A stretch of DNA of 64,000 nucleotides from a virus. The notes under the pieces were generated by a model. It had not been told where the DNA came from. It searched no databases and saw nothing but the letters and a program-made list of their open reading frames with translations. Below are positions 41,201 to 43,281 of the stretch, in pieces. A program made the translations under genes and the position numbers. The stretch covers positions 11,374-75,373 of IMG/VR virus record IMGVR_UViG_3300045999_009338; one strand, written 5' to 3'. Numbering within the stretch: the stretch's first letter is position 1; every line of letters begins with the position of its first letter.

Positions 41201-41266
41201 GGAGGGTCATTCCTCCCTAGTGGTCTGGCGGAGCGATCCGCCTTTTGTTCTCTCGCTTTTGTTCCT

Positions 41267-41467
41267 ATGCGTTCTCTCCTCCTTACTGGCGCTCTCGCTC
41301 TCACTGGCGGAGCTCTCGGTTTTTGTGCCTCCTCCTATGGCGAGCGGATTGCGTTCTCCTCCTCTGCCAAGGCCGCCGCTCCTTTTGCCGCTCCTTTTGC
41401 TCTTTTCGCGGGAGGCTCTGCCGCAGCGCTCTCGCTTGCCATGGCAGCCGCTACCGAGCGGCTCTGA
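41267..41467 (+). CDS. Small hydrophobic membrane protein
   Basis: Two Ala/Leu-rich helices. Confidence 0.45.
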   Translation: MRSLLLTGALALTGGALGFCASSYGERIAFSSSAKAAAPFAAPFALFAGGSAAALSLAMAAATERL

Positions 41468-41505
41468 GCTCTCCTCTGTTCTCTGTTCTCTCACCGTTTT
41501 TCGCT

Positions 41506-42264
41506 ATGGCTTCATTCAGTTCTGCCTGTTCTCTCCTCTCCTCCTCTTTTGTTTCCAAGGAGAGAGACAATGGAGAGCGGTTCTACTGCCTCTCAGACTC
41601 TGCGCCAGACTGGTGCTCTACTGCCGTGATGCTGGCTCACGATGATGAGCTTCCCAATGACTCCCGTTATGAACTCACCCGGGACGCTGCCATTGCTCTC
41701 TCTGATCAGGAGTTTGATTCCGCAGAGGATGCGCAGGAGGCTCTATGGGAGCTCTCTTGTGATCTGCTGCCGAGCTCTACTGCTGCTCTCCTGCAGTGGT
41801 TTGCTGATCGCCCGTCCCGTCTCTCGGATTGCGACGATGCCCTAGAGGAGCTCGGCTCCTCTGACTCCTATGGCTCTATCTCTGATCTCTTAGAGCTCGG
41901 ACACAGGAGAGCCTCCGAGAGCGTTCTCTCTGTTCTCATCGCAGAGATCGAGGAGAACCGTGAGAGCCTGTTCAATCCGGAGGAGGATGCCCGGCTCCTC
42001 CTCTCAGACTCACACGGGATATATATCCCGCAGCTCTACTGCCAAACCCTTTCAGAGGAGGAGGCAGAGGAGAGCGGCATCTCCTGGGAGGATGTTCTCC
42101 TCTGCCAGCAAGGCCCTGAAGAGGAGCTCTACTGGGAGGCATGGCAACAGATCTGCGATGCCGCGGAATGGGAGGAGGATGGAGAGATGTGGCGTCTCCT
42201 GCAGAATGGCGACCTCTGGCAAGTGAGAGCCGATGCCGTCATTCCGGACGAGTGGTTCTCGTGA
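41506..42264 (+). CDS. Very acidic two-domain early protein; N-domain Ocr-like (candidate DNA mimic)
   Basis: ATG at 41506; D/E-rich with almost no Lys; EDAQEALWELSCDLLP...LLQWFA resembles the Ocr helix pattern; C-domain SHGIYIPQ...GP..E.YWEAW...QNGDLW. Confidence 0.55.
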   Translation: MASFSSACSLLSSSFVSKERDNGERFYCLSDSAPDWCSTAVMLAHDDELPNDSRYELTRDAAIALSDQEFDSAEDAQEALWELSCDLLPSSTAALLQWFADRPSRLSDCDDALEELGSSDSYGSISDLLELGHRRASESVLSVLIAEIEENRESLFNPEEDARLLLSDSHGIYIPQLYCQTLSEEEAEESGISWEDVLLCQQGPEEELYWEAWQQICDAAEWEEDGEMWRLLQNGDLWQVRADAVIPDEWFS

Positions 42265-42464
42265 GGCATCGTCTCCCGCTCTCTCGCTCCGAGAGCCCAT
42301 ATCTGGCCTGGGCTCTCTCTCTCGCTCTCTCGCAGTGTGAGCCAGAGGAGGAGGAGCTCCTCCTCTCTCTCCTCTCTCGCTGCGAGGCTCTCGCTCCTTA
42401 CGCTCCTCTGCGCTCTCTCTCAGACTGGCGCTCCTCTGTTCTCTCTCGCTCCTCATCTCTCTAG
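42261..42464 (+). CDS. Small Ser/Leu-rich protein
   Basis: GTGA overlap with the upstream stop; same codon bias. Confidence 0.4.
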   Translation: MRHRLPLSRSESPYLAWALSLALSQCEPEEEELLLSLLSRCEALAPYAPLRSLSDWRSSVLSRSSSL

Positions 42465-42468
42465 AACC

Positions 42469-43281
42469 ATGCTCGCAACCATGCTCGGATCCTCTCAGCT
42501 CCTCTCCTCTGTTCAATCTCTCTCAGAGCTCTCTGGGGAGTGGTTTTTCTATGAACCACGGCAGGAGATAATGCGCTCCTCTGACTACTGTTCTCCCATC
42601 GAATGGCGGCAGCCGTCTCCCAATGAAGCTGAGAGCCTCTCGCTAGGAGAGCTCTCCTCCTACTCCCTAGAGCTCTGCAGAGAGCTCGGCTCCTCCGTGA
42701 CAAAGGTCACGCCAGAGGAGGCAGTTACGCTTCTGTGCGAGCGCAAGCTCTGGAAACAATGCTCCCTCCTCTGGCTCTCCTCTCACTGTATGGGAGGAGA
42801 TTATTGTGGCTCTACTCACAATATTGCTAACGCTCGCTATCTCCTCCAACGGTTCTCCTCGCCAGAGCTCAGAGAATGTGGCGGAGGCTATGGGAGCCAA
42901 GGAGTCATTGTCGACCCTCGCTATCTCTCAGAGGAGCTCCTAGAGCTCCTGCAAAGCCTTGAGAACTATCCCGTTCTCTGTGAGGATGAGCTCTCCTCCT
43001 ACGAGCTAGAGCTCCAAAACGAGATGTGGGAGGATACAGTGCGCAGAGAATGGGAGAACGTTCTAGAGAGCGCTCTCTCCTCTCTCCTCTCAGACGAGGA
43101 GCTCGCCGAAACCATCGTAGAGAGCCTCTCAGAGGAGAGCCTATTCTCCCTGTTCTCCCATTGCGCTGAGCTCTCTAATGCCTACTGGGAGGCAGAGACT
43201 GGCACCACTATGTGGATAGACGTCGATCGCGTCGCTGAGAGCCTCTCAGAGGAGCTCCTCTCCTCGCTCCTCCCTTCCTGA
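42469..43281 (+). CDS. Acidic early protein
   Basis: GGDYCGS....AN and L..LENYPVL.ED..S..E.E....W motifs; ATG at 42469. Confidence 0.6.
   Translation: MLATMLGSSQLLSSVQSLSELSGEWFFYEPRQEIMRSSDYCSPIEWRQPSPNEAESLSLGELSSYSLELCRELGSSVTKVTPEEAVTLLCERKLWKQCSLLWLSSHCMGGDYCGSTHNIANARYLLQRFSSPELRECGGGYGSQGVIVDPRYLSEELLELLQSLENYPVLCEDELSSYELELQNEMWEDTVRREWENVLESALSSLLSDEELAETIVESLSEESLFSLFSHCAELSNAYWEAETGTTMWIDVDRVAESLSEELLSSLLPS

Follow-up and report, generated by a model that had tools for sequence, protein, structure and literature searches.

An operon confined to a CT/GA vocabulary

What keeps a single operon of a phage genome in a vocabulary dominated by CTC and GAG, and does selection act there on the encoded proteins or on the nucleic acid itself? 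The island that raises this question lies at positions 41245 to 43281 of the window (the 64,000-nucleotide stretch of DNA that was analysed) in the 75,373-bp genome of an S-CBS4-like lake cyanosiphovirus. CTC occurs 95 times per kb in the island compared with 12 times per kb elsewhere, and GAG 51 times compared with 16, while the base content moves from A (17% versus 26% in the rest) to C (31.5% versus 24%) with G and T unchanged. The preliminary description of this DNA had pointed to GAG and CTC as the dominant Glu and Leu codons, unlike in the flanks, and to proteins rich in Ser, Leu and Glu and poor in Lys. Measured against 50 other genes of the phage, which served as the baseline, both observations were borne out: the fraction of Leu codons that are CTC is 0.74 in the island and 0.14 in the other genes (CTT, 0.08 and 0.33), and Glu is written GAG at a frequency of 0.88 as opposed to 0.34. 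Ser (15.7% versus 7.4%), Leu (15.7% versus 8.2%) and Glu (11.5% versus 6.0%) are roughly doubled, and Lys falls to 0.8% from 4.8%.

The edges are as sharp as first described, with a CT/GA word score that climbs at about 41200 to 41245, just 3′ of a hairpin at 41227 to 41242, and drops no more than 20 nt from the stop codon that ends the operon (43281). Runs of at least four A/T bases make up 4.1% of the island and 15.9% of the sequence elsewhere (z = −6.3). The k-mer diversity is the lowest in the genome (5-mer diversity of 0.53 to 0.61 versus a mean of 0.72), although distinct 6-mers are only ~15 to 20% fewer. Over the first ~500 nt, CTC strongly exceeds GAG and A makes up only 8 to 15% of the bases in all relatives; the 5′ part is strand asymmetric and pyrimidine rich on the coding strand in every one of them.

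An assembly chimera, which would have explained the island away, was ruled out. Contigs with 100% identity bridge the island and its flank in two independent lake metagenome runs (X3, covering 40623 to 42856, and X2, covering 42052 to 43719), and the same island is present in independently assembled IMG/VR and JGI contigs. Simple hypermutation, A-to-G or other, was also ruled out, since no single transition process fits a shift from A to C that leaves G and T as they were; DGR-type mutagenesis was dropped on the same compositional grounds. No reverse transcriptase was found among the ORFs scanned, which represent part of the genome, and Rfam gave no match in 39000 to 46500.

Four genes on the plus strand, which we call g1, gA, g3 and gB, make up the operon. 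The scan for terminator-like elements placed a G+C hairpin followed by a T run on this strand at 41227 to 41242, directly before the start of the CT/GA style. The leader of g1 (41245 to 41266, plus strand), read from the sequence, consists of pyrimidines only and has no Shine-Dalgarno (SD) motif. g1 itself (41267 to 41467, plus strand) encodes a small, hydrophobic protein of 66 amino acids rich in Ala, Leu and Ser (pI 9.3; GRAVY, 0.89), and its ORF is kept in the relatives L004 (97%) and L005 (60%). gA (41506 to 42264, plus strand) encodes an acidic protein of 252 amino acids (pI 4.05; AF2 pLDDT, 81). The GTG start codon of g3 (67 codons; 42261 to 42464, plus strand) overlaps the gA stop codon in the form GTGA, and what appeared to be a noncoding stretch at 42265 to 42468 is this conserved gene, kept in L001, L003 and L005 at 58 to 92% identity; it contains an 18-bp palindrome, GAGGAGGAGCTCCTCCTC. 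gB (42469 to 43281, plus strand) encodes an acidic protein of 270 amino acids (pI 4.16; AF2 pLDDT, 88; pTM, 0.81) that belongs to phrog_3906, a large, uncharacterised phage family with 1826 representative clusters. Its predicted fold had no match in the PDB (Foldseek E > 0.1; VIA Z ≤ 4.4), and Pfam, NCBIfam, PADLOC, the PDB and the Atlas gave no lead to its function. The order gA-g3-gB is kept in a single syntenic slot in many contigs, and among S-CBS4-like lake cyanosiphoviruses this slot is conserved.

Immediately downstream, a gene for 66 amino acids (43300 to 43500, plus strand) lies in the same apparent unit as the operon and is unbiased; an intrinsic-terminator-like hairpin 3′ of it (43551 to 43570, plus strand) closes the plus-strand unit. 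On the other side, the island adjoins an A-poor noncoding kilobase (40230 to 41216) that contains iteron-like and palindromic word blocks. This is probably a regulatory or origin region, and we describe it as context, with no membership of the operon implied. The island also lies near the local minimum of the cumulative GC skew.

Selection acts on nucleic-acid words

The CT/GA style is kept in more than 50 independent relatives, down to ~40% protein identity, and many lineages retain it after their synonymous sites have become saturated, also next to different flanks. It is confined to this one operon in a group of cyanophages that is widespread in lakes and estuaries. Synonymous divergence in the operon (dS, 0.37 to 0.41) is no lower than in neighbouring genes, and dN/dS values of 0.12 to 0.36 indicate purifying selection. 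gA diverges fast, at 54% identity where gB has 84%, and indels fall in the Ser/Leu-rich tails of the proteins. Neither the DNA nor the proteins of the island found a match in phage and plasmid collections, the cassette was not found in bacterial genomes, where it might have given a clue to a prophage or host, and searches of the literature turned up no description of such an island.

Had amino-acid content produced the bias, orthologues should have revealed it, and they did not. Ser and Leu are ordinary in distant gB relatives (which average 7% Ser, 9% Leu and 9% Asp), and the homologue in L056 is a similar protein written with GAA and mixed Leu codons, without the bias. Amino-acid content alone was further ruled out by synonymous shuffles, pooled over eight loci, that leave the proteins and their codon usage unchanged: AGAG was observed 304 times compared with 121 in the shuffles and CTCT 678 times compared with 423. 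The base before GAG is C in 9% of cases versus 35% overall and A in 30% versus 12%, and GAG directly follows 20 of the 48 TCA codons. Purine/pyrimidine (R/Y) transitions number 304 to 408 per kb in the island loci and 447 to 540 per kb in control genes; every biased clade has fewer of them than its shuffles (z = −2.6 to −6.4), whereas control genes have z values of about 0. At codon junctions, purine and pyrimidine runs are lengthened, A/T runs are removed and CTCGAG is purged.

Because the word bias crosses codon junctions beyond what the shuffles allow, it reflects selection on nucleic-acid words and not amino-acid content. What maintains the CT/GA style is selection at the level of the DNA or RNA, and this selection has shifted the proteins toward Ser, Leu and Glu, with Glu favoured over Asp. 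In a single operon, word selection has visibly changed which amino acids make up folded, conserved proteins. In this respect the preliminary description, which had proposed that selection acts on the nucleic acid, was right; its further suggestion, that low complexity serves to avoid restriction motifs, fares badly below. Codon choice driven by tRNA was also ruled out, the sole phage tRNA being Leu(TAA), which is unrelated.

On one and the same strand, enrichment of a word goes along with enrichment of its reverse complement (CTCTC with GAGAG, CTCTG with CAGAG and GCTCT with AGAGC). Such strand-paired enrichment fits a property of duplex DNA as well as one of RNA.

GAGCTC is exempt from restriction-site avoidance

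The most conspicuous single word is the palindrome GAGCTC. We counted exactly 20 copies in 41245 to 43281 (from 41310 to 43257), in agreement with the original estimate of about 20; by chance, 0.5 copies would be expected in 2 kb. The remaining ~73 kb holds one copy (at 51516), compared with ~20 expected there from a Markov model. Seventeen of the 20 sites are in-frame Glu-Leu codon pairs, and Glu-Leu dipeptides outnumber Leu-Glu dipeptides by 20 to 7. Pooled across loci, GAGCTC occurs 93 times versus 68 expected from codon usage (z = 5.1); it is enriched in two other clades too and is purged from the flanks in all relatives. The spacing of the sites has no regularity, and their positions turn over, only two being common to all four aligned genomes. 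One clade (L061, L074 and L075) keeps the CT/GA style while still avoiding GAGCTC.

The inverse arrangement is treated in the opposite way. In the pooled synonymous shuffles CTCGAG was expected 46 times and TCGA 104 times, compared with 0 and 28 observed, and Leu-Glu in the island is written CTA GAG, so that CTCGAG is avoided through codon choice. Genome-wide, the purge affects CAGCTG, CTCGAG, ACGCGT, ACATGT, GGGCCC, GTGCAC and GAGCTC. It is limited to exact palindromes, which rules out degenerate enzyme sites (GDGCHC and NAGCTN) as its target. The island nevertheless contains 19 distinct 6-bp palindromes, whereas 2-kb windows elsewhere average 16, and 45 such sites in total versus a mean of 24; CCCGGG, GACGTC and CCGCGG, which are purged as well, occur in it as single copies. 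Palindromes of at least 6 bp number 220 compared with 237 in the shuffles, and cruciforms or long palindromes are not enriched. Depletion of palindromes as a feature of the island thus fails except for CTCGAG and TCGA. Ordinary restriction avoidance overlays the word selection, purging these two and exempting GAGCTC, which is mildly enriched.

An Ocr-like fold suggested for gA

A possible function for the operon came from the AF2 model of gA. Residues 52 to 158 aligned with T7 Ocr (1s7z_A) in VIA-align at Z = 7.6 and an rmsd of 3.1 Å over 102 of 106 residues; this was the only row with Z of at least 5 for the core, the runner-up having a Z of 4.8. A weak BFVD match to gA carries the name "OCR-like antirestriction protein" (probability, 0.69; E = 0.89). 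The core domain has 25 Asp plus Glu residues and 7 Lys plus Arg (pI 4.05), and the whole protein has 58 and 13. At the sequence level, Pfam, NCBIfam and PADLOC gave no match that would relate gA to Ocr, and a profile of 27 gA homologues found nothing among PDB sequences at E ≤ 10. Residues 1 to 130 are related to small, Asp-rich phage proteins with HDDELPNDWRYE, and the C-terminal domain matches phrog_21544. As a Z below 8 on a helical domain, the modelled alignment is suggestive of an Ocr-like fold in the gA core, and we regard gA and gB as candidate anti-defence proteins of interest to work on cyanophages.

An early anti-defence transcript as the tentative explanation

We tentatively propose, while granting that it may well be wrong, that the island is an anti-defence operon with an Ocr-like gA, its style tuned on an early transcript. 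The selected object would most likely be this transcript, an mRNA rich in pyrimidines and poor in A that lacks A/T runs and has unstructured CU leaders. Such leaders could load ribosomes without an SD motif, and such an mRNA might withstand cleavage by host endoribonucleases at A/U-rich sites, so that anti-restriction proteins would be made soon after entry of the DNA. Were the transcript the driver, the style would be a way to secure anti-defence expression in SD-poor, RNase-rich cyanobacteria.

Several observations are consistent with this proposal. The bias begins after the hairpin and stops with the end of the gB reading frame, the 5′ part favours pyrimidines on the coding strand in every relative, and the operon leaders lack SD motifs and have weak predicted folding. 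An SD-like motif precedes only 12 of 64 other genes, which implies that this phage normally initiates translation independently of SD motifs. Against the proposal, the gene at 43300 to 43500 is unbiased despite its place in the same apparent unit, purine words, which share in the strand-paired enrichment, gain nothing from the logic of pyrimidine leaders, and the tolerance of GAGCTC here together with its purge elsewhere is left unexplained. The predicted minimum free energy (MFE) of the island mRNA lies 0.6 SD below that of GC-matched windows; compared with synonymous shuffles the z values are −3.2 to −8.4, control genes reach −5.2, and the RNA is not clearly predicted to be more stable than that of control genes. 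Metatranscriptomes gave one weak match, and two contigs from RNA libraries (X17 and X20), which cover parts of the region at 90 to 95% identity, are silent on transcription. A boxA of the E. coli type (TGCTCTTTAACAA, with up to three mismatches) is absent from 40200 to 43300.

Alternative explanations

A second reading, possible but somewhat unlikely in our judgment, is that a DNA-level cis element has been superimposed on the genes: the purine/pyrimidine tracts and the GAGCTC cluster would form a duplex platform, either a structure or an array bound or processed by a sequence-specific phage or host protein. The iteron region next door hints at a function close to where the genome is replicated or packaged. 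In another variant, the GAGCTC sites would be deliberately exposed to, or shielded from, a host enzyme specific for GAGCTC. Strand-symmetric word enrichment speaks for it, as do GAGCTC counts above the codon-usage expectation in a genome whose other parts and flanks purge this site, the surplus of Glu-Leu over Leu-Glu, and the position of the island beside the iteron-like region near the GC skew minimum. The irregular and shifting GAGCTC positions, the lack of enrichment of long palindromes and the clade with the style and no GAGCTC all tell against it, as does the strand asymmetry of the 5′ part in all relatives, and no candidate binding protein was found. If DNA is the driver, a dense cluster of an otherwise purged restriction site would represent an interface between phage and host of a new kind.

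An unlikely idea, and one that reaches further, is that the CT/GA tracts and the GAGCTC cluster form a nucleic-acid device superimposed on the genes, the anti-defence function residing partly in the sequence itself. With similarly little confidence, one can imagine it as DNA that the phage deliberately withholds from, or presents to, a GAGCTC-specific host enzyme evaded in all other parts of the genome (a decoy, a programmed break or a shielded platform), or else as a nuclease-proof, self-loading transcript.

The style might instead have no direct function, having been made by a local mutational process (for example slippage or gene conversion between short CT/GA words) or brought from a foreign donor, and being tolerated by acidic helical proteins, perhaps with faster diversification of anti-defence genes as a side benefit. 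The short, dispersed direct repeats, small tandems of two to three copies, indels in Ser/Leu-rich tails and fast divergence of gA would fit such an origin. We consider it improbable: there are no true tandem arrays (one tract of (CT)9.5 and microtandems of 2 to 3.5 copies), CTC at invariant Leu positions needs directed point changes, the junction rules (A and not C before GAG) are not products of slippage, and the style has outlasted synonymous saturation in many lineages under purifying selection.

Very unlikely, in view of the palindrome counts, is the suggestion of the preliminary description that the island is a low-complexity, first-injected segment that escapes host restriction by containing few motifs. 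It draws on the low k-mer diversity, the loss of CTCGAG and TCGA, the presence of an Ocr-like protein (the Ocr gene of T7 lies at the leading end) and the S-CBS4 record, which ends exactly at the slot, though inside a gene. Distinct palindromes are, however, no fewer than elsewhere, the loss of 6-mers is small, and the island is loaded with a site that the rest of the genome purges. Nothing among the assembled contigs places the island at a genome end: the source contig has no terminal overlap, and three near-full-length related contigs are broken at differing places relative to the island.

Least probable is base modification of CT/GA words or GAGCTC to protect or mark the segment, which would account for the local tolerance of GAGCTC and might draw on the sugar-modifying gene cluster of the phage or on an extra gene of the close relative L004 that lies beside the region and encodes 181 amino acids with a PPC motif, but no DNA methyltransferase or base-hypermodification enzyme was found among the genes scanned, the L004 gene has no Pfam match, and motif-specific marking would protect everywhere and make a genome-wide purge unnecessary.

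Comparison with known systems

The island is not a simple-sequence contingency locus, having no long tandem tracts and only short, dispersed repeats. It resembles the first-step-transfer (pre-early) region of T5 as a compact host-takeover or anti-defence block beside repeat-rich noncoding DNA, but it has no homology to T5 pre-early genes, and neither a terminal position nor a terminal repeat or injection-stop signal is evident. The likeness to the T7 early region is that of a short operon for small acidic proteins that adjoins repeat-rich noncoding DNA and precedes nucleotide-metabolism genes, and gA shares with the product of T7 gene 0.3 a strongly acidic character and, as predicted, a helical core of the Ocr type. 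It differs from Ocr in lacking detectable homology and in having extra N- and C-terminal domains, and T7 gene 0.3 is not known to have a comparable CT/GA word bias. With restriction-site avoidance the island shares the genome-wide purge, which extends to CTCGAG and TCGA within it, but not the treatment of GAGCTC, nor are its distinct palindromes fewer. As in the codon bias of highly expressed genes, one or two codons dominate (CTC, GAG and TCC/TCT); the bias of the island, however, crosses codon borders, extends into leaders, alters amino acids and tracks run length.

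A biased island in a freshwater cyanosiphovirus genome

The window covers 64 kb of one contig of 75,373 bp, in which no terminal overlap was found. It encodes a primase-helicase, a ribonucleotide reductase, ThyX, a dCTP deaminase, an exonuclease and a Sak annealing protein, together with a portal protein, a large terminase, tail fibres and a sugar-modifying cluster. The portal shares 67% identity with its counterpart in Synechococcus siphovirus S-CBS4, and many lake-water metagenomes contain near-identical DNA; the source phage is a freshwater S-CBS4-like cyanosiphovirus. The portal gene and later head-module genes flank the sugar-modifying cluster (55256 to 61742; glycosyltransferases, a xylose-isomerase-like TIM-barrel protein, an FAD oxidoreductase and DUF4422), which may act in virion glycosylation or, less likely, in DNA glycosylation.

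The island (41245 to 43281) comprises four genes, all on the + strand: g1 (41267 to 41467), encoding a 66-aa hydrophobic protein; gA (41506 to 42264; 252 aa); g3 (42261 to 42464); and gB (42469 to 43281; 270 aa). The g3 stretch had been taken as noncoding but proved to be a gene whose GTG start overlaps the gA stop codon. GAGCTC occurs 20 times in the island and once across the remaining 73 kb, versus ~20 expected there under a Markov model. CTC makes up 74% of Leu codons and GAG 88% of Glu codons (14% and 34%, respectively, in 50 other genes), the Ser, Leu and Glu content is double that of the same 50 genes, and Lys is reduced to 0.8% from 4.8% in other genes. Thus, the preliminary description, which had reported about 20 GAGCTC sites, a GAG/CTC preference, a Ser/Leu/Glu skew and low Lys, was accurate on each count. 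The bias, which we call the CT/GA style, starts right after a hairpin (41227 to 41242) and ends no more than about 20 nt from the stop codon at 43281. Because identical contigs from independent runs span both edges, the island is real and an assembly chimera is ruled out.

The start context of gB is doubled (AACCATGCTCGC twice, 42465 to 42487), so that ATGs occur in frame at two positions four codons apart; the AACCATG context is found again ahead of the following gene (43300) and, toward the right end of the S-CBS4 record, ahead of several start codons. A tandem CCCACAAGCG repeat (3.5 copies, 43501 to 43535) lies directly 5' of a + strand terminator (43551 to 43570). Further downstream, within 43835 to 45380, a minus-strand gene for a 329-aa protein (44209 to 45198) with only a weak IS110-family match (NCBIfam, E 8e-4) has hairpin arrays on both sides; the closest relative has this gene (98% identity) and the others lack it. 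Outside the island, the vocabulary of the genome is also narrow and strand symmetric, with AAGCTT (101 occurrences), CCATTG (102) and CAATGG (92) each at ~5-fold expectation across the whole genome. S-CBS4 shares this trait and also has purged exact palindromes. The sole tRNA gene, tRNA-Leu(TAA) (50719 to 50792), fits TTA/TTG use outside the island, not within it.

Selection acts on the nucleic acid

Amino acid content alone does not account for the bias. Distant homologues of the gA N domain are Asp rich and Lys poor but lack the CTC/GAG bias, and distant gB relatives average 7% Ser, 9% Leu, 11% Glu and 9% Asp, so acidity and Lys poverty are family traits; the excess of Ser and Leu and the shift from Asp to Glu are derived. 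A gB homologue with 42% identity (L056:2018-2824) has no CT/GA bias: 29 of its 33 Glu codons are GAA, its Leu codons are mixed and its purine/pyrimidine runs are normal, making it a natural control for recoding experiments.

We also shuffled synonymous codons within each gene at eight loci, holding protein and codon usage constant, and the shuffles did not reproduce the real sequences. AGAG (304 observed versus 121 expected), CTCT (678 versus 423) and CTCCTC (189 versus 79) were in excess, and CGAG (54 versus 164), TCGA (28 versus 104) and CTCGAG (0 versus 46) were deficient. C was the last base of 9% of codons preceding GAG (35% of codons overall) and A of 30% (12% overall), and 20 of 48 TCA codons stood directly before GAG. 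Purine/pyrimidine transitions numbered 304 to 408 per kb versus 447 to 540 in control genes, and fell below the shuffles in all biased clades (z, −2.6 to −6.4), whereas controls scattered around 0. A/T runs of at least 4 covered 4.1% of the island versus 15.9% elsewhere (z, −6.3 versus shuffles). Thus, selection acts on words and run structure, crossing codon borders and reaching the leaders, and these results, with the unbiased L056 homologue, support the original proposal that DNA or RNA itself is under selection.

Among about 60 related loci retrieved, many carry gA-g3-gB in one slot, with small replication-module genes and then a 1-kb noncoding region upstream and ribonucleotide reductase downstream. 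CTC plus GAG reaches 110 to 180 per kb in these islands versus 25 to 40 in the flanks, down to ~40% gB identity. Synonymous sites continue to change: comparison of this phage with its 90%-identical relative gave dS of 0.37 to 0.41 in the island and 0.23 to 0.34 in upstream genes, and at 55 to 60% protein identity, codon identity at conserved residues drops to the level predicted by codon bias. The CT/GA style is thus actively maintained despite turnover of individual sites. We found no paper describing such a maintained word bias.

The GAGCTC paradox

Exact palindromes are strongly purged outside the island (observed/expected: CAGCTG, 0/21; CTCGAG, 0/6; ACGCGT, 0/8; GAGCTC, 1/20; GGGCCC, 1/12; GTGCAC, 1/8), whereas their nonpalindromic relatives are not depleted; ACATGT is likewise absent from the rest of the genome. 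The island avoids the same palindromes except GAGCTC. Although CTC makes up 74% of its Leu codons, all 7 Leu-Glu pairs have CTA, CTT or TTA before GAG, and relatives avoid CTCGAG by codon choice in the same way, implying that island DNA is exposed to restriction pressure. The mechanism initially favoured, avoidance of most restriction motifs, was not supported, since the island contains 19 distinct 6-bp palindromes versus a mean of 16 in other windows.

Glu-Leu pairs outnumber Leu-Glu pairs (20 versus 7), and 17 of the 20 are written GAGCTC. Pooled, GAGCTC was observed 93 times versus 68 expected (z, 5.1), while flanks of relatives hold ~2 in roughly 75 kb. The site is enriched in two further clades, but another (L061, L074 and L075) keeps the style and avoids GAGCTC. 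Positions turn over, with only two sites common to four aligned genomes, and we found neither regular spacing of GAGCTC nor an excess of long palindromes in the island. Clustering of GAGCTC here and its purge elsewhere present a paradox.

Transcript or DNA element

Directly upstream of the island lies a 1-kb A-poor noncoding tract (40230 to 41216), kept in close relatives, that resembles an origin or a regulatory region. It contains a bidirectional terminator (40232 to 40253), three iteron-like GGC(C/G)TATCT(T/G)GG units, three copies of TATGCGCA, GTAC-containing palindromes, 2.6 copies of a 59-nt unit with paired TGATCA sites (40559 to 40710) and four TTCCGCATCC-like boxes. In one close relative (L004:1600-2145), an extra gene between the tract and the upstream genes encodes a 181-aa protein whose AHPPC motif recalls motif IV of cytosine methyltransferases; a Pfam search gave no match.

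The S-CBS4 record (NC_016766), deposited as complete and linear, lacks the island. It ends within the homologue of the gene at 39768 to 40070, aligned to residue 63 of 100 only, and restarts at the homologue of 45988 to 46179, so that its two ends bracket exactly the island slot; this could reflect a physical terminus or an unassembled segment. Break points of related contigs differ in place relative to the island, and among the assembled contigs nothing puts it at a genome end.

With modest confidence, we place first the idea that the bias tunes early anti-defence mRNA. The bias coincides with the transcribed and translated unit, the coding strand is pyrimidine rich over its 5' ~500 nt, with only 8 to 15% A, in every relative, and the leaders lack SD motifs, which few genes of this phage have, and are weakly structured. 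A/T runs, preferred by A/U-directed endoribonucleases, have been removed. The E. coli boxA consensus gave no match at the island. A serious rival is a cis-acting DNA element overlaid on the genes: every enriched word is paired with its reverse complement on the same strand, the GAGCTC contrast concerns a duplex site, and the island adjoins the iteron-bearing kilobase near a local GC-skew minimum. RNA folding predictions favour neither.

A predicted Ocr-type operon

The gA and gB products are real folded proteins, as judged from AF2 pLDDT (81 and 88, respectively), conserved Trp, Cys, Tyr and Pro positions and dN/dS of 0.12 to 0.36. The gB protein is one of a very large family of uncharacterised acidic phage proteins, and structure searches with it yielded no known fold. 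The gA core (residues 52 to 158; pI 4.05) matched the DNA mimic Ocr of T7 (PDB 1s7z_A; Z 7.6; rmsd, 3.1 Å; 102 of 106 residues), its sole structural match at Z of at least 5, and the island is predicted to be an Ocr-type anti-restriction operon. No sequence homology between gA and Ocr was detected, and in this the two differ; their likeness lies in the fold of the gA core and in its acidity.
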